The position numbers and the translations under genes were made by a program. This document shows, piece by piece, positions 2,195 through 12,151 of a DNA stretch of 12,151 nucleotides (position 1 is its first letter; each line of letters begins with the position of its first letter). The notes under the pieces were generated by a model, which saw only the letters and a program-made list of their open reading frames with translations, was not told the DNA's origin and made no database searches. The DNA comes from Archangium sp. (GTDB lineage: Bacteria > Myxococcota > Myxococcia > Myxococcales > Myxococcaceae): assembly GCA_031367385.1 (NCBI GenBank), contig JANLPS010000323.1, positions 1 to 12,151 of the forward strand, read 5' to 3'.

Positions 2195-2504
2195 CAGCCT
2201 CAAAAAGGGGTGGGCTTCGAAGCGAGGCGTACGCGCGACTCTGCAACGTGTTTCTCGCGAAACGACTTTTTGCCCCAAACCGTTTGGAAGACACAAATAC
2301 TTCGAGTCACCAGGGGCAAACCCCAGTAATTTCAACGCTCAACCCCTGCGTTTCCTCGCTGAGGCAGATGACGCGAGGGTTCGTGAAATCTGCGAGCGCA
2401 TCGGTCTGACACCAGTGAGCAGCGCCGTGAGCTGACTGAAGCTCTGGCGACAGCTGTCGAGCCATGAATCAACGCAGGCGCTCGTCACCGAAGCCACAAA
2501 ACTC

Positions 2505-2534
2505 AAAAAGCCCCGAGCTGTGAGCTCGGAGCTT
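2505..2534 (-). terminator. Rho-independent terminator downstream of tRNA-Glu (possibly bidirectional)
   Basis: Minus strand AAGCTCCGAGCT-CAC-AGCTCGGGGC-TTTTTG: stem with one G-U pair followed by a U tract. The plus strand also has TTCTT after the stem. Confidence 0.8.
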
Positions 2535-2561
2535 CTTGACCTGGGGACGAGCCAGGATTTT

Positions 2562-2634
2562 TGACCCTGCCGGGATTCGAACCCGGGTTTGAGCCGTGAG
2601 AGGGCTCCGTCCTAGGCCACTAGACGACAGGGCC
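2562..2634 (-). tRNA. tRNA-Glu (anticodon CTC), CCA not encoded
   Basis: Cloverleaf: acceptor GGCCCTG/CAGGGTC, D arm GTCTAGTGGCCTAGGAC, anticodon arm GAGCC-CTCTCAC-GGCTC, T arm CCGGG-TTCGAAT-CCCGG, discriminator A followed by AAA. Confidence 0.95.
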
Positions 2635-2648
2635 GAAACGCGCGGCGG

Positions 2649-2677
2649 GGAATACGGAACCCCACACCTGATGTCAA
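2649..2677 (-). promoter_or_regulatory. Sigma70-type promoter for tRNA-Glu
   Basis: Perfect TTGACA (2677-2672), 17-bp spacer, TATTCC (2654-2649), then a GC-rich discriminator (CCGCCGCG) before the tRNA. Confidence 0.65.
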
Positions 2678-2687
2678 CAACCACTTG

Positions 2688-2760
2688 AGCGGCGCAAGGG
2701 GTTCGAACCCTTGACCCCGAGCTTGGGAAGCTCGTGCTCTACCAGCTGAGCTAGCACCGC
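2688..2760 (-). tRNA. tRNA-Gly (anticodon CCC), CCA not encoded
   Basis: Cloverleaf: acceptor GCGGTGC/GCGCCGC, D arm GCTC-AGCTGGTA-GAGC, anticodon arm CGAGC-TTCCCAA-GCTCG, T arm AAGGG-TTCGAAC-CCCTT, discriminator U (typical of bacterial tRNA-Gly) followed by CAA. Confidence 0.95.
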
Positions 2761-2772
2761 GTCTGCGGGCGC

Positions 2773-2801
2773 AAGGTGCCAAGAAGCTCGCGCTACGTCA
2801 A
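2773..2801 (-). promoter_or_regulatory. Possible sigma70-type promoter for tRNA-Gly
   Basis: TTGACG (2801-2796), 17-bp spacer, CACCTT (2778-2773), then GC-rich GCGCCCGC before the tRNA. The -10 match is weak. Confidence 0.45.
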
Positions 2802-2831
2802 GGACGACGAGCAGCCGCCAGACTGACGGGC

Positions 2832-3848
2832 CTACTCGAGCCCGCCGTCCTTCGGCACGAACGGCAGCTCTCGGGCGACGCCATTGCGTTGGTCTCCGAG
2901 GCAGTAATCGAACTGCACATCGAGCGGGCTCAGATCGGGCTGGGGCAGGCAGACCCGCAGCCCGGGGTCGCAGCCCAGGCCGCTGAAACATTCAGCCGAG
3001 GTGGCACATGGCCCGTAATACGATCGGCGCAGCCCGCAGACCGCTGGCGACCTGGTCGCATCGCACACCCCGAGGTCGTTGCACGGCGTCGCCTCGCACG
3101 GCTCGCCAGGCGCCGCTTTGAGTTGGCAGCGTTGATCAAACGCGCAGAAGGCCCCGGCCACGCAGCGGCTGGTCGGCAACCCGCAGGCCTCGCCGAGCCC
3201 CGGGAGCGGGCGACATCGACCATCGACCGCGAGGCGAACGCCGCCGTCAGAGAGCAGCGCGCTCCGGCCCTCGCACAACAGAGCCCCTCCGTCATCGGCG
3301 TCGGCGCAGTCTGAATCATCGAAGCACTTCTCATCGGCCCGAACGTTCGGCACGAACATGTGGGCACACGAACGGGGCTGATGTGCGTCGTCGAAGAGCA
3401 CCAGCCCCGGAGCGCACGAGTCGGCCCCGGCCTCGAGCCACGAGAGGCAGGTGCGCGCCGCCTCGATGTCGAAGTGTTGACGGCCATCGTCGAGCGCCTC
3501 GAGACGACGCTGGTACTTGCCGAAGAGCGAGAGGGTCACCGCCCGCCGGCAGGCCGTCGCGTCAACGAAGAGCGACGGCTCTTTGATCAGCGCCAAGGCC
3601 AGCCCCTGTGGCGTCAGCAGCGCCTCGGCGACGCGGGTGCGCTCGGGTTGCGAGCAACAATCGAGCAGCAACGAGCACACGTCTTTCGCGTACGAGAAGA
3701 GCACGTTGTCTTGCGAGGCGATGTCGCACAACGCCGCGGTGGGCTCAGCCGTGCAGTCGGGCACGGGGCGCCCTCCATCGCGCGTCGGGGCGAGCGGCTC
3801 TTTGCAGGCTCCCGCGAGCAGCACCACCGCGATCAGGGTCACTCGCAT
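2832..3848 (-). CDS. Cys-rich lipoprotein (myxobacterial type, tandem small disulfide modules)
   Basis: MRVTLIAVVLLAGA-C lipobox (Cys15). 27 Cys in 338 aa, with repeated GExC...C...C...C units in the C-terminal half. Starts 2 bp after the stop of the barrel gene. Confidence 0.85.
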   Translation of the reverse strand: MRVTLIAVVLLAGACKEPLAPTRDGGRPVPDCTAEPTAALCDIASQDNVLFSYAKDVCSLLLDCCSQPERTRVAEALLTPQGLALALIKEPSLFVDATACRRAVTLSLFGKYQRRLEALDDGRQHFDIEAARTCLSWLEAGADSCAPGLVLFDDAHQPRSCAHMFVPNVRADEKCFDDSDCADADDGGALLCEGRSALLSDGGVRLAVDGRCRPLPGLGEACGLPTSRCVAGAFCAFDQRCQLKAAPGEPCEATPCNDLGVCDATRSPAVCGLRRSYYGPCATSAECFSGLGCDPGLRVCLPQPDLSPLDVQFDYCLGDQRNGVARELPFVPKDGGLE

Positions 3849-3850
3849 GT

Positions 3851-5716
3851 TTAGAACCGGGCCTCGACGGTGGTGATGAAGCGCGAGTTGTCGGCGAAGC
3901 GGCCGAAGAACCCCTTGCTGTCTCCAGCGAGCACATCGACGCCGACCCGTGCCTTGACCCGATCGAAGAACGAGTACTCGACCCTCGGTGAGATCAACAC
4001 GTCGAACCGCTCGACCGAGCTAACCGCGTTCACCTCGACCCTCAGATCTTGACCGATCTCCCAGCTCACCCGGCCGAGCACCGCGAGGGGGAAAGGGTAG
4101 CGCAGCAGGTCGACGCCTTCAGTGGCCAGCGCGCCTCGCAACGCCCGCGCTCCAGTGAATTCGAGAAACAGATGCACTCGCTGATCTCCGAAGAACTGGC
4201 CCGTCTGGTAGTCGCCGCCGACGTCGAAGATCAGATACGGGTCGGCGACCCTCGAATCTCTGGCGGCCCGGTCTGCGGTCAAGAACGCCGCGCCTTCTGC
4301 CGCGAGACGCAGCTTGCCGAACACGCGCTCAACGTCGAGCGCGAAGACCTGCAACCGGCGGTATTGCCAATCGACGAACACGTCAGCCCCCAGCGGCACG
4401 CCCCGCTCGGCCACCGCTTCGAGGTGCGCGCTCGGCAAGTGATCAATCAGAAATGCGTAACCCACGCCAATGTCGGCCCCGGCCACCGAGAACTCGACCC
4501 GGGCGGCGGCTTGCGTCGTCGCGGCGCTCGGCATGGGCGACGCAAAAGGGGCCACGTGAAAAGTGAGCGGCACGCTCCCCGGCACATTGATGCTGCCGCG
4601 AAGCCAGCGCGACCTACTCTCGATGGCGCCACTGGGGCTGATGCCCGTGACCGCAGGCAGGCGGTGGGTCTCGGGCACCGGCAGGTACGACGCCTCGATC
4701 GTGAAGGGCCCGACCGTCGCCGTCATCTTGAGCATCAAGGTGCCGACCTTCTCGGGGTCGAGCGGGTCTCGATAATCAACCGGGTTGAGCACGTCGGTGG
4801 GGTTGTAGAGCGATGCCGACCCCCACGACGAAATCAACCGCCCTGCCTTCACCGACACCGACGGAAAGGTGAGGTCGACCCACGCTTCTTCAGGATCGAA
4901 GCGGTTTCGCGACGGGTCGACGAAGTCGGCTCGGGCCAACAGGCTCGCGTAGGCGGTAGCTCGGGGGTGAATCGCCTTCACGTGCACTGCCGCTTCGACG
5001 TTGTCGCGGCCTCCGAGGTGCGCCTGGTCGGGGGTCTCGAAGAACCCATAGTGCTCGAACGCCACCCTGCCCCCCACTTCGATGGCCGTATCGAGCCGAA
5101 TCGCTTCGACCACGCTCGGCGCCGAGGCCTCGGTCGCCTCTGCCACCCGCGCCGCACCAGTGGGCACGGGCGCGAACCCGGCCGTCGCGTCGTCCCACGT
5201 CGGGTCGACGGCGGTGGGCTTCGCAGTGGGCTCGGGCGGCGCGGTGGTGCCAGCAGCAGCGGGCCTGGTCACACTGATCTTCTCGGCCAGCGACGCGGTC
5301 AAGGCCTTGGCTTGATCTGCGGTGAGCCGAGATCGGCTGACCAGCACGTACGCGGCCCCCGCCTCTTTGCCATCTGCGCCGAACGCGGTCAGAAAGAACA
5401 TTCGGGCCCCAAGGCCGCTCGAAAACCGACCGGTGAGGGCGAGGTCGCACGAAAGCCGCCCGCGCAGATGCACGAGCCCCTCTGGGGTCTGCCAGGCAGA
5501 CCGGGCCAAACGAAGGGCCCGCGCCGCCACCCCGACCTTCTTGTTCGAGACAACGACGAACGACCGCGCGAGCTCGGCCTCGAGCGTCTTGACCGCGGCG
5601 GCCATCGACATCTGCGACCCGGTATCAGTGACGTCGACCAGACAGACCGACGTGGTCTGCCCCATCGCCGAGAGCGGCACCACCAACGAGAGCCCGAGCA
5701 GCCACCGAAGCGTCAC
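3851..5716 (-). CDS. Outer-membrane beta-barrel protein (resembles barrels accompanying MMPL + LolA-like pairs) with N-terminal periplasmic domain and Pro/Ala/Thr linker
   Basis: Signal peptide MTLRWLLGLSLVVPLSAMG. Amphipathic beta-strands from ~aa 205, the motif EAWVDL..VSVKAGRLISSWG...YNPTDVLNP.D, and a C-terminal BAM-type signal ending in Phe (FITTVEARF). Confidence 0.8.
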   Translation of the reverse strand: MTLRWLLGLSLVVPLSAMGQTTSVCLVDVTDTGSQMSMAAAVKTLEAELARSFVVVSNKKVGVAARALRLARSAWQTPEGLVHLRGRLSCDLALTGRFSSGLGARMFFLTAFGADGKEAGAAYVLVSRSRLTADQAKALTASLAEKISVTRPAAAGTTAPPEPTAKPTAVDPTWDDATAGFAPVPTGAARVAEATEASAPSVVEAIRLDTAIEVGGRVAFEHYGFFETPDQAHLGGRDNVEAAVHVKAIHPRATAYASLLARADFVDPSRNRFDPEEAWVDLTFPSVSVKAGRLISSWGSASLYNPTDVLNPVDYRDPLDPEKVGTLMLKMTATVGPFTIEASYLPVPETHRLPAVTGISPSGAIESRSRWLRGSINVPGSVPLTFHVAPFASPMPSAATTQAAARVEFSVAGADIGVGYAFLIDHLPSAHLEAVAERGVPLGADVFVDWQYRRLQVFALDVERVFGKLRLAAEGAAFLTADRAARDSRVADPYLIFDVGGDYQTGQFFGDQRVHLFLEFTGARALRGALATEGVDLLRYPFPLAVLGRVSWEIGQDLRVEVNAVSSVERFDVLISPRVEYSFFDRVKARVGVDVLAGDSKGFFGRFADNSRFITTVEARF

Positions 5717-5727
5717 CGAGGTGCCTT

Positions 5728-6507
5728 TTACTCAGCTTCGAGCATGCGGCGACTAAAGACGTCATCAGGAGCGCTCTTGACCTCGCGATCGATGACCGTG
5801 ACCACCGTTCGATGCTTGCGCGTCACATCGACCACCGTCGTTTGGTCTGCCCGCCAAGCCACCTTGCCGACTTGTTTGAGCCCCGACGAGTCGATTTGCT
5901 TGAGCGGCTGAAGCTTGCGGTCGAAGACGCGGGCCCGAACCACGAAGTAGTTGTCTTTGCGAACCCACAACATCGTGCGGCCATAGGGCGACTGCTTCGT
6001 CACCTTCGCCGAGGCCGGCAAGACCTCGAGCACCCAGCATTCTTGCCCCTCGATGGTCTCTGACGGGAGCAACGCATACGTGTAGTCGTCGAGCCTGCGC
6101 CGCTTGAGATCTTCATAGAAGAGGTCGGTGCCGACGAAGCGGTCTCCCAGCTCAGCCTGCGCGATGCGCCGCGTCTTCTTATACGCCGGCAGGTACAGCC
6201 ACTGCTCGTCGTCGCGGTCGGCACCATCTCCGAGCGTCTCGACCGAGAGCAGGCCCGTGCCCTGAACGTCGGCGGGGGCTTGAAATCGAATCTTGAGCCG
6301 GTCTCCGATTTTCTCGTCGTTCGCGTACCAGCTCTCGACCGTGCGCTCGCGGTTCCCGCCGTCTTTTTCCTGCAACGTCATGCGAGCCCGGGTGTGCTCG
6401 TAGGCGACCCGGTGCCGCTTGTCGGCGGTGTCGGCGATGTCACGCGCCGATTCAGTCGCGAAAGACGGCGCCGCGCATACCAAGATCAACAACAGCGTCG
6501 TTTTCAC
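5728..6507 (-). CDS. Outer membrane lipoprotein-sorting (LolA-like) periplasmic protein
   Basis: GTG start at 6507 overlaps the MMPL stop (GTGA), with an AAGGAG RBS. Signal peptide (M)KTTLLLILVCAAPSFA. Family motifs F..PADV.GTGLL, DDEQWLYLPA.KK.RRI and FVGTDL.YEDL. Confidence 0.9.
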   Translation of the reverse strand: MKTTLLLILVCAAPSFATESARDIADTADKRHRVAYEHTRARMTLQEKDGGNRERTVESWYANDEKIGDRLKIRFQAPADVQGTGLLSVETLGDGADRDDEQWLYLPAYKKTRRIAQAELGDRFVGTDLFYEDLKRRRLDDYTYALLPSETIEGQECWVLEVLPASAKVTKQSPYGRTMLWVRKDNYFVVRARVFDRKLQPLKQIDSSGLKQVGKVAWRADQTTVVDVTRKHRTVVTVIDREVKSAPDDVFSRRMLEAE

Positions 6508-8867
6508 GTGGTGACTCCTTCTTTGGGGGCCAGAGCGCTCGGTTCGACCGAAGCCGCCACCCTGGGCACGCCCAGGCGGGTACCGGTCAAGACAATCAAC
6601 GGAGGCAGCAGCAGCACCTCCGCCAGCACCCCCGCGACCATCGCGAATGAGGTGATGAACCCGAAATTGAAGGTCACCTTGAAGTTGCTGGCCATCAGCG
6701 TGCCGAACCCAAGGGTGATGATCAGCGTGATCCACAACGCGCCGACGCCTTTGGTGGCCATCGTGTGGCGTATCGCGCGCTCGAGGTCTTGGTGCTCGGC
6801 CAGACCTTGCCGCATGCTCTGAATGAAATGAATCGTGTCATCGACCGCGATGCCGAGCACGATCGCGGTCGTCATCGAGGTGCCGACGTCGAGCGGTATG
6901 CCCAGCCACCCCATCAACCCCAGGCACGCCAGAATGGGGAAAATGTTCGACGGCACGGTGAAGGCCGCTGCGCTCAACGACCCGAACACCAAAATCATCG
7001 GCAAGAAAATCAGCGCGAACGAAATCAAGAAGCTCGAGGTCTGCCCATCGAGAATGTTGTTCGTCATCACGATGTCGAGGTAGGTCGCCCCCGTCACCCG
7101 AGCCTCGTAGCCAGCCGACGCCGGAAAGTGGCTCTTCAGGTACTCGTTTATCTGCGAAAATCGATGGGTCAGCACCGCTGAGCCCGACTCCGTCGTGCGT
7201 GCACCGACGCGAGCCCACATCCACGACCGGTCGACGAACTGAAAGAGCCGATCATCGCCATTGAGCAGCACCAACTGCGCGACCTGCTCACGCGTCTGCG
7301 GCAGGTGGTTCGCCGACTCGCTCTCGTCGTTGAACGCCCGGTGCATCAGCCGAACGTGATCAGCCACCGATGCGGTCATCGTGGCCTTGACCTCGAGCGC
7401 AAGAAACGCCTGCAGGGCTTCGAGCTTCTGCAGCTCGGCCGGGTCGAGAAAGCGGTTCTCGTCGTGAGTGCGAACCGAGACGATGATCTCGTTGCTGCCT
7501 CCAAGGTGGGTGTTGACCATCTCGGTCGCGCGGCGAATCGGCAAATCACCCGTGAACTGGTCGACCGTGCTGTGGTCGATCTTGAACCAGATCAACCCGA
7601 TCGACGAGATCACCGTGAGCACGCCCATCGCGCTGAGCACCAGCTTGGGCCGGCGAATCGCCAGATCAGTGTACCGATTCACCATGCGCTCGACGCCCGC
7701 GCTGGCGGCGATGCCGCGCGATGAGATCAACCGCTCGGCTCCGAAGTACCGAACCACCAGCGCGAGCATCAAAAAGCTCGTCGCGAAGACGCCCATCACC
7801 GCGATGGCCGCCGCGATGCCGAACTCTCGCATTGCCGGTATTCGGCTGAAGCCGAACGACACGAACCCGAAGGCCGTCGTCAGCTCGCACATGAAGGCCG
7901 GCACCAAGAGCTCCTTGAGCGAGACCTCGGCGGCCCGCTCAGGCCCGACGATCTTGGTGTTTCGGGCGTACTCGGTCAGAAAATGAACCACCGTCGCGAC
8001 CGAGAGCACCATCAGCATCGGAGGCATGATCGTCGACAGGTTGGTCAACGAGCCGAAGACCGCCAGCGTGCCCATGCCGAAGATGACCGCGATGCTCGCA
8101 TTGGCGAACGCCAGCACCACGCCGGCCACCCGCCGGGTGAAGACGAAGATCAGCAGCGACAACATCACGTACGTGACCGGCACGAAGCGCTTCAGGTCGA
8201 GCATCATGCAGGTGTTCGAATCGCTCTCGATCACGGGCCCGCCGGTCACGAAGAACTGCATCTGCGACCCGGAGTGCTCCGCCAATACCCGGCGTACCGC
8301 TACCACCGCACGGGCCCGCGCCTCGTCGTTCGACCCCCGCGCCAGCCGCACCATGATCGCCGCGACGTTGGGCGAGGTGGCCGACAACAACCCATCTCGA
8401 ATCAGCCAGTTCGACCTCGCGTGCGCCCGAATGTCTTCGAGCGCGGCCGTCTCTGATGGCACCTCGTCGGGCACCAATAACACCGAACGAAAAGTCGAAT
8501 CAGCCCCTCGAACGTCTTTGACCGTCGACACGCTCACCACGTCGTCGATGAGCCCCTCGCCGGCCGCCGAGAATTGGTCGCCGATGACGCGAATTTCTTC
8601 GAGGTTCGCCTTCGAGAAGACATCGGCAGCCTGGTAGGCGACGAAGATCACGTCATCGCTCACGAATTGCTGCTCGATCGTCTTCAAGAACAGCTGGGCC
8701 GGGTCGTCATCGGCGACGAAGACGCGGGTGCCCGACTCGAGCCTCAACAGCGGCAATGCAGCCAAGCTCCCGACCACCAGCAGCGCCAAAACCCCTGCGA
8801 CCTGGCGTGGCTTGTTCACCAACCACTTCGCGGTGTGCTCCGAGATCTTCTCTAGCCCAGTTGACAT
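6504..8867 (-). CDS. MMPL-family / RND-superfamily inner-membrane exporter
   Basis: 787 aa with two repeats of (1 TM + periplasmic domain + 5 TM). Motifs VTGGPV, LTTAFGF.SF...IPAMREFG and LGIAVDDTIHF. Confidence 0.92.
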   Translation of the reverse strand: MSTGLEKISEHTAKWLVNKPRQVAGVLALLVVGSLAALPLLRLESGTRVFVADDDPAQLFLKTIEQQFVSDDVIFVAYQAADVFSKANLEEIRVIGDQFSAAGEGLIDDVVSVSTVKDVRGADSTFRSVLLVPDEVPSETAALEDIRAHARSNWLIRDGLLSATSPNVAAIMVRLARGSNDEARARAVVAVRRVLAEHSGSQMQFFVTGGPVIESDSNTCMMLDLKRFVPVTYVMLSLLIFVFTRRVAGVVLAFANASIAVIFGMGTLAVFGSLTNLSTIMPPMLMVLSVATVVHFLTEYARNTKIVGPERAAEVSLKELLVPAFMCELTTAFGFVSFGFSRIPAMREFGIAAAIAVMGVFATSFLMLALVVRYFGAERLISSRGIAASAGVERMVNRYTDLAIRRPKLVLSAMGVLTVISSIGLIWFKIDHSTVDQFTGDLPIRRATEMVNTHLGGSNEIIVSVRTHDENRFLDPAELQKLEALQAFLALEVKATMTASVADHVRLMHRAFNDESESANHLPQTREQVAQLVLLNGDDRLFQFVDRSWMWARVGARTTESGSAVLTHRFSQINEYLKSHFPASAGYEARVTGATYLDIVMTNNILDGQTSSFLISFALIFLPMILVFGSLSAAAFTVPSNIFPILACLGLMGWLGIPLDVGTSMTTAIVLGIAVDDTIHFIQSMRQGLAEHQDLERAIRHTMATKGVGALWITLIITLGFGTLMASNFKVTFNFGFITSFAMVAGVLAEVLLLPPLIVLTGTRLGVPRVAASVEPSALAPKEGVTT

Positions 8868-8885
8868 GCTTTGCTCGATTCAGGG

Positions 8886-9803
8886 TCAAACGGGTTTTTC
8901 GGCCAGCGCGCCCTCGAGCGCCTCGAACTCGGCTGAGTTCATGTCCATCACCACTTCTGGCCTCAGCCAGGCCAACCGCATCGCGGCGCGGCGGTGGGCT
9001 TGACGCAGCGCCGCGAGCTCGTCGCTCGAGCCCGGCAGGGTGATCTGCGGGTGCCGAGTCTCGACGAAAAAGGTGAACGGGTTGAAGCCAGCCGACGGGG
9101 GCTTGCCAGCAAACGCCCGGCCAAACTCAGCGTGCGCGGTCTCGAGCGGCAGATGAAGCGCGCACGAATCGGAGTTGATGCCAGGGTACCGCAGCGAGAC
9201 CTCGGTCAAGGGCACGAACCGCAACGCCGCTTCGTAGAACATCGCAATCTCGGGGCGCACCGCGGCCACCAGGTGCATGACGCCGAGCAGCTCAGATGCC
9301 GTCTTCCACATCGCTTTGTAGAGCAGCATCGTCAGGCCGTGATGCCGGTGCGCCGGCTTCACCGCGAGCGCGCCGATCTCAGCGATCAAGCCGCCCTTCG
9401 CGCGCAAGCCCTTGACCGCGTCGCCATAGGCCGTCTCGAGTGGCAAGCCGAGCTCGGAGTCTTGAACAAGCGACAGCGTGGCGACCACTTCGCCCTCGAC
9501 CAAGGCCACAAAGCGCACCGTGGTGGGCAACATCAGAAACGACGTGACCCGCACCGGCACGCCACGCTGCGGCACCAGGCCCGTCTCGACGTACGCCTCG
9601 AACAACAACCTCGAGGCCTGCTCGTGCTCCGACGGCGTCTCGGCGATCTTCACCACCAGCTCGGGTATCGTGTCGGTCTCGGCGTGAATTCGTTTCAGCA
9701 CCATCGGGTCGCGAATGCCCCTCGGCAGGCGCGACGTCATCTCGAGCGTGAGCTTCTTGAGCCGGCGGCGCAGCCAAACCCAAGCACTGGGCGCGTCAGC
9801 CAT
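8886..9803 (-). CDS. GNAT-fold N-acyl amino acid synthase (FeeM-like) protein
   Basis: ATG 9803 overlaps the FHA gene stop (TGATG); 305 aa. FeeM/NAS-like pattern: KIA....E.E.A.RL...AY...G, T..FVA...GEVVATLSLVQDS..GLPLE..Y...V..LR..G..IAEIGALAV, and LVAAVRP....FY. Confidence 0.8.
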   Translation of the reverse strand: MADAPSAWVWLRRRLKKLTLEMTSRLPRGIRDPMVLKRIHAETDTIPELVVKIAETPSEHEQASRLLFEAYVETGLVPQRGVPVRVTSFLMLPTTVRFVALVEGEVVATLSLVQDSELGLPLETAYGDAVKGLRAKGGLIAEIGALAVKPAHRHHGLTMLLYKAMWKTASELLGVMHLVAAVRPEIAMFYEAALRFVPLTEVSLRYPGINSDSCALHLPLETAHAEFGRAFAGKPPSAGFNPFTFFVETRHPQITLPGSSDELAALRQAHRRAAMRLAWLRPEVVMDMNSAEFEALEGALAEKPV

Positions 9804-10381
9804 CAGTGATCTCCGACGCTGCTGTGCCGTACCGACTCGAGCTGCAGAAACAACGTCGGCGTCGTGACAAACACCAGGTTCGCATCGCCCACGCGAATCA
9901 GGTCGCCGTCTGCCAGCTCCGTCGCACGCAGCACCGGCGAAGCGTTGCACAAGGTGCCATTGAGCGAATTCGCGTCGGCCAGCCAGACGCCCCGTGCCCA
10001 GTGCAAAGCGGCGTGGCGCTTGGAGACCGACTCTTCGCTCATTCGCAGCTGCGCTTCGGCGGAGCGGCCGATGAGCGCGTTGCCCTCGGCGCCCCCGATG
10101 AAGTCGATCTCCATGTCGCGAAAAGCACGCAGCATCAGCAACGCATCGCTCGCGGTGCCCCGGGAGCCGCTGCCCAACACCGTCGCGGCCGAGCCGAACC
10201 GCAGCAACGCGCGCTCGACGAGCTCGTCGGCTGGCAGATGCAAGAAGGCCGCGCGACCCCAACGAGCGACAAATGCGCGCACGGTGGGCTCAGGGGACCG
10301 GAGGAGCGCGCGAACACTCGAGCGCACGGTCTGGTTCGTGGTGGGTGCGGGTGATTCTGAGGGTCGGAGCTCAACGTGCAT
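9803..10381 (-). CDS. FHA domain-containing protein
   Basis: ATG 10381 with a GAAGAGG RBS; 192 aa. FHA signature residues are intact: IGR, SVSKRHA, D.NSLNGT, DGDLIRVG. Confidence 0.9.
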   Translation of the reverse strand: MHVELRPSESPAPTTNQTVRSSVRALLRSPEPTVRAFVARWGRAAFLHLPADELVERALLRFGSAATVLGSGSRGTASDALLMLRAFRDMEIDFIGGAEGNALIGRSAEAQLRMSEESVSKRHAALHWARGVWLADANSLNGTLCNASPVLRATELADGDLIRVGDANLVFVTTPTLFLQLESVRHSSVGDH

Positions 10382-10416
10382 GGGTGACCTCTTCGAGAAA
10401 TGTGATTGCAACGAAG

Positions 10417-11328
10417 CTAGGCGGCGGTCTCGGGCAACGACTTCACCAACTGGCCACGCGCCAGGCGGCGGCGAATGATCCACATCATCAGGCGCTGAAT
10501 GGGGTTGCGATTGCCCCATGGGCGCCAGGTGCGTGCGAGCTCGTTGCGGTACGAGTCGTATTGCACCGCGTGAGGCGCCGCATGCACGCGCCCCCGCTTG
10601 AGCAAGATCTTGATCGCCTCACCCGCCGCCACGCCCGCGCACATCTGGCAAGACCCACCAATTGATGGGCCGGCGCGCTGCCCCAGCTTCACCCGGCTGG
10701 CGTCGGCAAGGTAGGTGCGCTGCAACATCGCTGGCGAGAGCCCCACCATGAAGCGCAGACCCTTCTCTTCGTCGGTGACGCCCTCCCAGCCGAAGTACTC
10801 CTCGAAGGTCATCTGCCCCGGCAGAAAGTTCACCATCGCCACGCCAATGCCCAAGGGCGCGACGATGATCGCCGGTATCTTCAGATCGGCCAGCGTGCGG
10901 TACACCAGCTGCCGGGTCTCGAAGGCAAAGTAGTCGAGCGCGTCGACGTACAGGTCGACCCCTTCGAAGAACGCCTTCACGTTGTCCGGCTGAATGCCTT
11001 GGGGAAACAACCGCAGGTCGAGCTCAGGGTTGATGTCGAGCGCGGTCTGACGCATCACTTCGATCTTCTGCTTGCCGATGGTCGACATCAGCGCGCCCGA
11101 CTGCCGGTTGAAGTTGACCAGGTCGAAGGTGTCGAAGTCGGCGATGTTGAAGGCGCCGATGCCCAGCCGCGCCAACGTCACCAGATGAATGCCGCCCGAG
11201 CCGCCCAACCCGCCAATCGCGATGCGCGAGCGCTTGAGCTTCTGCTGCTCGGCTTCGGTCACCCACCCCAGATTTCTCGAAAAGGCCTTCTCGTATTCGA
11301 ACCCAATCGTCGGCGCGGGAGCGGTCAT
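10417..11328 (-). CDS. ThiF/MoeB/E1-family adenylyltransferase (stand-alone)
   Basis: FSRNLGW...EQQKL, nucleotide-binding GGLGGSGG, IADFDTFDLVNFNRQ, GKQK, VDALD and C-terminal GPS...SCQMCAGVAAGEAIKILL. Start chosen at ATG 11328; 11364 and 11367 are possible alternatives. Confidence 0.9.
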   Translation of the reverse strand: MTAPAPTIGFEYEKAFSRNLGWVTEAEQQKLKRSRIAIGGLGGSGGIHLVTLARLGIGAFNIADFDTFDLVNFNRQSGALMSTIGKQKIEVMRQTALDINPELDLRLFPQGIQPDNVKAFFEGVDLYVDALDYFAFETRQLVYRTLADLKIPAIIVAPLGIGVAMVNFLPGQMTFEEYFGWEGVTDEEKGLRFMVGLSPAMLQRTYLADASRVKLGQRAGPSIGGSCQMCAGVAAGEAIKILLKRGRVHAAPHAVQYDSYRNELARTWRPWGNRNPIQRLMMWIIRRRLARGQLVKSLPETAA

Positions 11329-11389
11329 ACTCAGTCGTTCCACGAGGCGAGGGCGAACTTCCATCACGTCGACAAAGACCGCTAAGCCA

Positions 11390-12067
11390 TCAAGGTTGCT
11401 CGGCTTTTGGCTTTTCGCCGATCACATTGAGGGTATTGCCGGTGCGCTCTGACGCGACGATGGCGAACCCCGCTGTAGTCATGTGCTCGTGCACCTGCGC
11501 CTCGGTGAAGACGTCGTGCAAGATGCCCTTGCGCATGCCCCAGGCGTTGATTCGGTTCGACAGCCACTTGAGCGGCGCCGCCCCGCTCGGCACCAGCAGC
11601 GCATTGACCGCCAGCCGGCCCCCGGGCTTGAGCACCCGCGAAAGCTCAACCAACCCCGCCCCCACGTCGGGGAAGCAGTGCACCGCGTTGGCGATGTTGG
11701 CCGAGTCGAACGTCGCGTCGGGAAAATCGAGCCGGGCCACGTCGGCTCGAAGCAACGTCACGTCAGGAGCCTCTCCGAGCCGGCGTCTCGCGCCCGCCAG
11801 CATCGGCTCGGCATAGTCGAAGCCGACCGTGTGGGTGCGTGCCAGACCGCGCAATGCGCGCCACCGCCGAATGATCGAAAACAAGGTGGCCGTGCCGATC
11901 GCCGCTTCGAGGTGGCGCGGGCCCATGTTGGCACTGAAGAACCGCACCTGCGCCCAGAGGCTGCTTCGATACGAGAAGCACAGAATGAAGAAGCCGCGAA
12001 CGTCGTACCACCACGGTGGCGAGTCATACGCTTGTTCGAGCTTCTCGAGGCTGAGTTGGTCGGTCAT
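11390..12067 (-). CDS. Class I SAM-dependent methyltransferase (UbiE/Methyltransf_11-like)
   Basis: Motif I-like HLEAAIGTA, GFDYAEPML, ADVARLDFPDATFDS and ELSRVLKPGGRL. ATG 12067 is preferred over the TTG at 12109. Confidence 0.9.
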   Translation of the reverse strand: MTDQLSLEKLEQAYDSPPWWYDVRGFFILCFSYRSSLWAQVRFFSANMGPRHLEAAIGTATLFSIIRRWRALRGLARTHTVGFDYAEPMLAGARRRLGEAPDVTLLRADVARLDFPDATFDSANIANAVHCFPDVGAGLVELSRVLKPGGRLAVNALLVPSGAAPLKWLSNRINAWGMRKGILHDVFTEAQVHEHMTTAGFAIVASERTGNTLNVIGEKPKAEQP

Positions 12068-12113
12068 GCAAGGCGGTACCCTGAGCGGGGCTCCACCTTC
12101 CTTCGCCAAAGGC

Positions 12114-12151
12114 TCAGCGGCCGCCCAGCTCGGTCTTCAGACGCAGCGCAT
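12114..12151 (-). CDS. Possible 3' end of an upstream gene (partial)
   Basis: Minus frame ...GCG CTG CGT CTG AAG ACC GAG CTG GGC GGC CGC TGA (ALRLKTELGGR*) with high GC at third positions. Too short to identify. Confidence 0.35.
   Translation of the reverse strand, partial: ALRLKTELGGR

Follow-up and report, generated by a model that had tools for sequence, protein, structure and literature searches.

A methyltransferase in place of the flavin oxidase: a predicted variant of the acyl-oxazolone pathway in an Archangium operon

To our knowledge, all characterised pathways that use ThiF-type enzymes of the family considered here end by desaturating an oxazolone ring. According to excerpts of the reports on the OxzAB system of Pseudoalteromonas rubra (bioRxiv 10.1101/2020.06.11.147165) and the TrzAS system (PMC12856293), both of which combine an N-acyltransferase with a ThiF domain, such domains catalyse the ATP-dependent cyclisation of N-acyl amino acids. 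In TyzA/TyzB/TyzC, the N-acyl tyrazolone pathway (PMC10404671, in excerpt), a separate acyltransferase and a stand-alone ThiF cyclase of about 300-320 aa occur with an MmpL gene nearby. The same layout is found in the DNA analysed here, a stretch of 12,151 nucleotides from Archangium sp. (assembly GCA_031367385.1, contig JANLPS010000323.1), called the window below, which is the entire contig C291 in our numbering. As in the oxazolone synthetase pathways OxzAB, TyzABC and TrzAS, its operon encodes an N-acyl amino acid synthase (an N-acyltransferase, NAT) and a ThiF of the type linked to flavin oxidases (FDOs), with an intact ATP site, but the flavin oxidase itself is missing. TyzC, the FDO of the tyrazolone pathway, has no counterpart in the window or its genome; instead, the window has a gene for an S-adenosylmethionine (SAM)-dependent methyltransferase (MT) before ThiF, an FHA gene coupled to the acyltransferase gene, and LolA-like, barrel and lipoprotein genes. 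Unlike in OxzAB and TrzAS, the second domain in fused members of the window's variant is a SAM methyltransferase and not a flavin oxidase, and the known route cannot give a 4-arylidene oxazolone here. We regard as new this putative FDO-less ThiF-MT unit of the acyl-oxazolone pathway, for which the comparative evidence is strong and the chemistry is predicted. An earlier sequence-only reading of the window had seen the novelty in the stand-alone ThiF, which does not hold, as TyzB (318 aa) is already stand-alone (PMC10404671). Its pairing of ThiF with the NAT stands insofar as both belong to the same eight-gene operon, although they are not adjacent; the FHA gene that lies between them, and the MT gene upstream of the span it dealt with, had not entered that reading.

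By family, the window ThiF is an oxazolone-type cyclase, an assignment that follows from its family score, the FDO neighbourhood of its relatives and its position in trees. It matches the Pfam ThiF domain (E 8.9e-41) and scores 432 bits against NCBIfam NF006077/PRK08223 (cut-off 266, model positions 4-288 of 296), and its sequence also aligns with the ThiF portion of PRK14851 (E 9e-88) and PRK14852, two models of ThiF-nitroreductase fusions. Because the open reading frame (ORF) ends after the ThiF domain, the enzyme is unfused, in agreement with the sequence-only reading (about 303 aa, no fused nitroreductase). It is 56-61% identical to FDO-fused ThiFs. The ATP-site residues GxGGxG, D64, N72-x-N74-R75-Q76, K88 and D129/D132 are invariant or near-invariant across 35 ThiF homologues, and the structural model adopts the E1/ThiF fold; its solved matches are all 17-23% identical. 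The closest named relative is a Myxococcaceae metagenome-assembled genome, whose ThiF is 88% identical. We centred a set of loci on the best 80 of 119 confirmed genomic relatives, which are 53-66% identical to the window ThiF apart from that of the sister genome. An FDO is beside or fused to ThiF in 75 of these 80 loci, no more than 130 bp away in 59 and always within 3.3 kb; a representative neighbouring FDO matches the Rv1355c and Acg models. In trees (FastTree, 126 rows; IQ-TREE LG+G4, 40 rows; rows with fewer than 230 aligned positions, duplicates and L005/L006 dropped), the window ThiF nests among FDO-linked and FDO-fused ThiFs, and the genome's own MoeB/ThiF/TcdA-like genes form the outgroup. 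The proposed OxzAB-like logic is partly supported, by the family's FDO linkage and by the distance of the window ThiF from the MoeB/ThiF/TcdA-like genes, and the suggested phylogenetic check gave no grouping with MoeB or TcdA. As for a sulfur carrier, a six-frame regular-expression search of the window found no ThiS/MoaD carrier and no PEP-CTERM gene, as had been claimed; the only GG-ending frame of 60-120 aa is an Arg/Gly-rich shadow frame that does not resemble ThiS, and a ThiS-like ORF lies on a separate contig (C408).

Neither the window nor the inferred upstream contig yielded an oxazolone-type FDO or nitroreductase, and the source genome (7.97 Mb, 562 contigs, 98% complete) yielded none either. 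None occurs among the 11 window proteins scanned against Pfam and NCBIfam, as the sequence-only reading had it, and its further check beyond the window likewise gave none on C360, the contig overlapping the window start, or among the 12 ORFs scanned on C353, the inferred upstream neighbour. The nitroreductase model PF00881 has no match in the source genome and matches in 14 of 14 control genomes. PRK14851, run over the genome, matched ThiF parts only, and a hidden Markov model built from 74 neighbouring FDOs gave a best E of 0.76 over 139,880 six-frame genome segments. An alignment-based search for FDOs found none in the source genome or the sister genome.

The MT, which adjoins ThiF 61 bp upstream, is a conserved partner of FDO-less ThiFs of this type in the loci and genomes compared. 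It is absent from all 75 FDO-bearing ThiF loci, and two of the five FDO-less ones carry it together with a NAT (the sister genome and Thiobacillus L017, whose MT is 50% identical). A second set of loci was centred on the MT; these are metagenomic, the best 79 of 107 confirmed, and many are short. A PRK08223-type ThiF is present in 55 of them, no more than 78 bp away in 44, and a FeeM-type acyltransferase in 15. Of the 24 MT loci without ThiF, most end a short distance from the MT; L142 does not. None of the 79 has an FDO, including 17 with at least 3 kb on both sides of ThiF, flanks that would catch nearly all FDOs because those in FDO loci all lie within 3.3 kb. At the genome level, we took one draw of 401 genomes from the order that holds Thiobacillus: ThiF occurs in 72 and the MT in six, all within those 72 and all FDO-negative, and 60 of the other 66 ThiF genomes are FDO-positive (one by a weak, distant match only). 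Fisher's exact test gives p 5.9e-6 for this exclusion, or 3.5e-5 minus the centre genome, values that are inflated by kinship. The MT is also absent from 30 genomes picked from ThiF loci (28 with an FDO), and an FDO is absent from eight of nine MT genomes.

Fusions and gene order point the same way. Among MT-family proteins longer than 427 aa, 14 of 16 contain a PRK08223 ThiF; 13 of the fusions are FDO-less, two in the order ThiF-MT and eleven in the order MT-ThiF (five of them one lineage), with one of the 13 extended to MT-ThiF-FeeM. Three further MT-ThiF fusions were found among the 50%-identity representatives of the MT family, and sources of MT-ThiF fusions are named as Verrucomicrobia, Bacteroidetes and Elusimicrobia. 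In Thiobacillus, the order hemB-NAT-ThiF-X-PEP-CTERM gene-TPR gene has an FDO as X in L015 and L016 and the MT as X in L017; the metagenomic L103 has the MT in slot X, in the same order as L017. The window ThiF groups (support 99/96) with the MT-ThiF fusion P0126 and both Thiobacillus types. The MT-linked ThiFs never formed one clade in 200 bootstrap trees, and an approximately unbiased (AU) test rejects a single clade (p 1.8e-9), so one ThiF type works with either partner. Judged by gene content, then, MT and FDO nearly exclude each other and the same ThiF type serves either. Other combinations were also seen. L035, L036 and L215-L221 make up a third class, in which a PRK08223 ThiF without FDO or this MT has genes of the PEP-CTERM, TIGR03694 or export kind as neighbours. 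Another methyltransferase-like ORF is common to L218, L219 and L195, and a second methyltransferase family lies beside some MT-ThiF loci (L157:2246-3205, L164:5827-6759, L191:8650-9501). P0139 is an MT-PilZ protein of 331 aa.

We propose a pathway for this operon and give it about even chances of being right: it would make an N-acyl amino acid, close it to an azlactone, and methylate the ring instead of desaturating it. The FeeM-type enzyme would join an acyl group from acyl carrier protein (acyl-ACP) or coenzyme A (acyl-CoA) to an amino acid, as its family suggests. ThiF would adenylate the carboxylate, and the amide oxygen would close a saturated oxazolone (azlactone), by analogy with TyzB, TrzS and OxzB chemistry. 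The MT would then methylate the enolisable ring, a step suggested by co-occurrence, fusion and the exclusion with FDO. A saturated azlactone has an acidic C4-H, and the enolate that it forms can be alkylated at C4 or at oxygen. Methylation at C4 would give a quaternary azlactone (or, once this is hydrolysed, an N-acyl alpha-methyl amino acid), whereas O-methylation of the enol would give a 5-methoxyoxazole; we modestly favour C4. Since the MT replaces the FDO, it most simply acts on the same intermediate, and either methylation would take away the acidic C4-H that the FDO would remove, which would explain why the two rarely co-occur. A shade below even is our confidence in the core of this chemistry, in which a widespread ThiF-MT pair would use a transient azlactone to acidify the alpha-carbon for SAM methylation, giving alpha-methyl amino-acid lipids, or 5-methoxyoxazoles if the enol is O-methylated. 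The MMPL, LolA-like and barrel proteins, whose linkage is conserved, probably export the lipid, and the FHA protein might perhaps couple the acyltransferase to Ser/Thr-kinase signalling. The sequence-only reading had proposed a saturated azlactone as one possible product. This compound is already known as an intermediate: excerpts of the TrzAS report describe a saturated cyclised intermediate that accumulates when the oxidase is blocked and was undetected in cells, and oxazolones that readily hydrolyse or alcoholyse (PMC12856293). The MT points to a methylated end product over a free, reactive azlactone.

The MT itself belongs to a family without a name: no NCBIfam family scores above its cut-off. 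The family comprises 1105 members (sequence clusters) at E 1e-30 among 8000 candidates scored, with 83 representatives at 50% identity; it was found in three of 401 genomes of the window's phylum and had no match among 72,556 plasmids. A JGI label as UbiE/MenG quinone methyltransferase was rejected, at 47 bits against TIGR01934/PRK00216 cut-offs of 158-216. The AlphaFold2 (AF2) model has the class I fold (pLDDT 87.8), and its best fold match is PmtA (8ys9; Z 22.0, rmsd 2.9 over 197 aa, 21% identity). SAM-site residues are intact across divergent members. Outside the SAM site, Y21, R24, Y33, N127, H130, N155 and N211 are kept in 45-50 of 50 divergent members, and within this set the polar Y21, R24, N127, H130 and N155 in 48-50 of 50; the residues of this set could hold an enolate. 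N127-x-x-H130, Y21 and Y33 are invariant, and the N-x-x-H recalls polyketide synthase (PKS) C-methyltransferases, in which, according to an excerpt, a His-Glu dyad and a Tyr act on enolisable substrates (PMC9821293). No PKS C-methyltransferase domain or motif was found in the source genome. A predicted complex of the ThiF dimer with the MT scored 0.00 in two runs, which we count neither way. Residue 60 of the MT is Ala in place of the usual SAM-loop Gly, which is probably tolerated because 10 of 114 matched homologues share it.

Several observations weigh against ring methylation as set out above, or against the comparisons behind it. The top fold matches of the MT mix N-, O- and C-methyltransferases at 16-23% identity, without favouring C-methyltransferases, and the C-methyltransferase of CurJ ranks only 30th in Foldseek. 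The Glu position of the PKS enzymes presumably corresponds, by motif spacing and not by alignment, to the invariant N155 of the MT. The exclusion has exceptions: P0135 is a single MT-ThiF-FDO protein, and the myxobacterial genome G158 carries the MT on one contig without an adjoining ThiF, plus three FDO matches. Six of the 72 ThiF genomes have neither an FDO nor this MT, as does the ThiF locus of a seventh, and the ThiF loci L035/L036 are also without both, so the ring-closing enzyme can exist without a capping partner. Independent phylogenetic contrasts are few, with two pairs on well-supported branches and a test that is circular by construction, and the ThiF trees do not include OxzB, TyzB or TrzS themselves. 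Finally, the acyltransferases beside proteobacterial ThiFs share only 23-32% identity with the paralogue family of the window's NAT, which, together with the resident paralogues described below, means that the NAT-ThiF pairing may be recent and the NAT perhaps recruited.

The sequence-only reading also considered that an activated acyl group is captured by another nucleophile, including a protein, and this survives only as a rival to ring methylation. In its present form, which we consider possible but rather doubtful, ThiF would make an activated acyl donor, either an adenylate or a saturated azlactone; after export, this donor would acylate proteins of the envelope or exopolysaccharide, and the MT, like the FDO, would be optional tailoring, for example of a side chain. 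The proteobacterial relatives sit beside PEP-CTERM genes, with a PEP-CTERM-tailed ORF, often PepA with PrsT, in 13 of 17 long MT-ThiF loci, and ThiFs without FDO and MT also lie near PEP-CTERM genes, TIGR03694 acyltransferases and LolA-like, barrel or MMPL genes; these two facts keep this rival alive and count against ring methylation. In the source genome, an exosortase-family match above cut-off on C338 and 46 rough MYXO-CTERM-like tails fit it too, but a regular-expression search finds no PEP-CTERM-like tail there, and the exosortase match was not found in the sister genome (87% complete). Other methyltransferases accompany the FDO clusters of Stieleria, where, in the available excerpt, they are proposed to act on the tyrosine ring (PMC12479983). 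Side-chain tailoring, however, would not predict the near-complete exclusion of MT and FDO, and FDO-type clusters in the same neighbourhoods yield small-molecule oxazolones, as the excerpted OxzAB report describes (bioRxiv 10.1101/2020.06.11.147165). The exosortase-family match on C338 (L189, G000:C338:9776-10069) adjoins a VWA protein whose C-terminus resembles a sorting tail.

That the MT methylates the N-acyl amino acid off the ring, at the amide N or the carboxylate, before or in parallel to ThiF, which would couple the product to another nucleophile or close a different ring, seems unlikely. The best fold match of the MT is a lipid N-methyltransferase, the PmtA noted above, and P0123 (MT-ABC1/UbiB kinase-FeeM, 879 aa) and P0136 join the MT to FeeM without ThiF. 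A small-substrate ThiF, AclA, is among the top ThiF fold matches at 20% identity; it presumably makes a lactam from acyl-lysine. Yet the link of the MT to ThiF is closer than its link to the acyltransferase, with 14 of 16 fusions and 55 against 15 of the 79 loci (by the FeeM-type model), and the FDO route uses ThiFs that are about as closely related as those of the two Thiobacillus types. Moreover, an N-methylated substrate could no longer form a neutral oxazolone, and ThiF would lose its substrate if the carboxyl group were converted to a methyl ester. It is improbable that ordinary unsaturated oxazolones are made by an oxidase of another family encoded elsewhere, with the MT as mere decoration. 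In favour of this, the assembly is in 562 contigs, P0135 demonstrates that one protein can accommodate both MT and FDO, and related myxobacterial FeeM genes have FAD-binding oxidases and desaturases as neighbours. Against it, no FDO at all is present in eight of nine MT genomes, and no other oxidase family recurs near MT loci, a GMC-type or FAD oxidase occurring once, only in unrelated paralogue loci. Scarcely credible is a housekeeping MoeB/ThiF/TcdA orthologue that lies beside the acyltransferase by chance. The closest solved structures by sequence are TcdA and ThiF, but these matches cover the ATP-binding half only; the MoeB/ThiF/TcdA models score 54-89 bits against cut-offs of 152-377, compared with 432 bits for PRK08223, which is found in none of the 14 control genomes. 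The window ThiF has only two Cys (C227, C230), and separate MoeB/ThiF/TcdA-like genes of the same genome form the outgroup.

Craig et al. in 2011 reportedly described N-acyl amino acid synthases associated with PEP-CTERM/exosortase (TIGR03694). The proteobacterial MT-ThiF loci resemble such systems in adjoining PepA, PrsT and TIGR03694 or FeeM acyltransferases; the window NAT, in contrast, is of the FeeM type (PF21926) without a TIGR03694 match, and the window has no PEP-CTERM gene. AclA of Tenacibaculum discolor (PDB 9egb) is likewise a stand-alone ThiF-fold enzyme, solved with substrate, with a TM-score of 0.71 to the ThiF model, but it belongs to a different family at about 20% identity. 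The stieleriacine candidate clusters, likened here by description only from an excerpt (PMC12479983), have a methyltransferase gene, such as Enr13x_31210, directly beside ThiF and an N-acyl amino acid synthase nearby; unlike the window, they also have a nitroreductase, and their methyltransferases are the ones assigned to the tyrosine ring. We found no literature on a ThiF-MT pair without FDO, in a search that had subscription papers outside its scope; the UniProt-wide CO-ED dataset may list the domain pair without a function. The network in the TrzAS report places ThiF nodes next to an FDO, an acyltransferase or both, and the paper nowhere uses the word methyltransferase (PMC12856293). A passage of a 2025 review names OxzB as the sole small-molecule ThiF-like enzyme known to it (PMC12596934).

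From a branch in which a methyltransferase takes the oxidase's place, one would expect an enzyme reaction and a class of lipids that are both new, in Myxococcota, Pseudomonadota, Verrucomicrobia, Bacteroidetes and Elusimicrobia. Should the methyl group be placed at C4, a pair of small soluble enzymes, or a single natural fusion of the two, would convert ordinary amino acids into quaternary alpha-methyl ones. Such a step is in demand in biocatalysis and would be an enzymatic counterpart of synthetic azlactone alkylation, off any assembly line. The single-locus swap in Thiobacillus offers a clean route to the role of these lipids beside PEP-CTERM floc genes.

The best solved relative of the NAT is FeeM (2g0b). 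The NAT is one of four resident paralogues, the others being on C1, C203 and C367; each has an FHA gene in its locus, and only one of these loci has a ThiF. In the acyltransferase tree, the four group together, and the tree is otherwise too long-branched for use. The local NAT may be a recruited partner of ThiF. In the FHA protein, G105-R106, S120-x-x-H123 and N141-G142 are kept in five of five aligned copies. The copies at window 9803-10381, L009:10166-10714, L010:14684-15226 and L011:8646-9164 have an extra N-terminal region in common; the FHA and FeeM-type genes are co-directional and adjacent on C291 and C1, convergent on C367 and 6 kb apart on C203. The pairing is not general, as an FHA gene lies within 1.5 kb in one of 11 other genomes with this acyltransferase type. 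Nine Myxococcaceae genomes have a related FeeM gene, mostly divergent from a FAD-binding oxidase gene (L198-L205, L213:7942-11915) and in several cases followed by a fatty-acid desaturase, LolA-like or MMPL gene; one such locus, checked to 18 kb, has no ThiF. These FeeM/FAD-oxidase loci probably represent another variant of acyl-amino-acid pathway.

The eight genes (Table 1) form one operon on the minus strand, with successive gaps of 61, 35, -1, 18, about -4, 11 and 2 bp. Logan contigs across 8000-12151, from sequencing runs that may be those of the source itself, show the operon to be continuous but do not reveal its upstream surroundings, and no sigma-70 promoter-like site was found in 2300-12151.

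Table 1. Genes of the operon in the window, in order of transcription
Gene product	Position	Strand	Remarks
Class I SAM methyltransferase (MT), 225 aa	11390..12067	-	PF08241 E 2e-15; first operon gene; family without a name
Stand-alone ThiF-type adenylyltransferase/cyclodehydratase, PRK08223 family, 303 aa from ATG	10417..11328	-	NF006077 432 bits
FHA-domain protein, 192 aa	9803..10381	-	PF00498 E 4e-13; stop overlaps acyltransferase start
FeeM-type N-acyl amino acid synthase (NAT), 305 aa	8886..9803	-	PF21926 110.7 bits, cut-off 27
MMPL/RND-type inner-membrane transporter, 787 aa	6504..8867	-	PF03176 E 8e-22
LolA-like periplasmic carrier, 259 aa	5728..6507	-	PF17131 E 1e-48
Predicted outer-membrane beta-barrel protein, 621 aa	3851..5716	-	Weak DUF1302 match
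Cys-rich predicted lipoprotein, 338 aa	2832..3848	-	Last operon gene; 31% identity to G158 gene after FDO

In the sister genome, the order MT-ThiF-FHA-NAT-MMPL-LolA is conserved, and the MMPL transporters of the two operons are 78% identical. Homologues of the window's barrel and lipoprotein flank the FDO beside NAT-ThiF in G158: the barrel is 36% identical to the protein adjoining the FDO, and the lipoprotein matches the gene after it at E 8e-48. A TPR-like gene comes before the sister operon. Its orthologue (71% identical) is cut by the start of contig C353, and the final residues of this gene can be read at the right end of the window; because the gene spans the two ends, C353 is the inferred upstream neighbour. 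Among the products of its 12 scanned ORFs are a FecR anti-sigma protein, DnaK, PhoH and GreA/B, and an ECF-sigma-like ORF is also present. Outer-membrane-like, ECF-sigma-like and FecR/zf-HC2 anti-sigma genes lie directly upstream on the same strand (L212:1-2907), and the lone MT of G158 is likewise near a sigma/anti-sigma-like pair (L178). At the other end, genes for tRNA-Glu and tRNA-Gly lie at 2562-2760, 72 bp past the last operon gene and in a GC dip, and contig C360 overlaps the window start by 141 bp; the ORFs at the end of C360 resemble what we take to be an IS21 istA/istB pair, and the tRNA region is a possible integration site. Outside the operon, 615-2027 encodes a protein of 470 aa that is Cys-rich at its ends and has a weak PBP/PstS-like domain.

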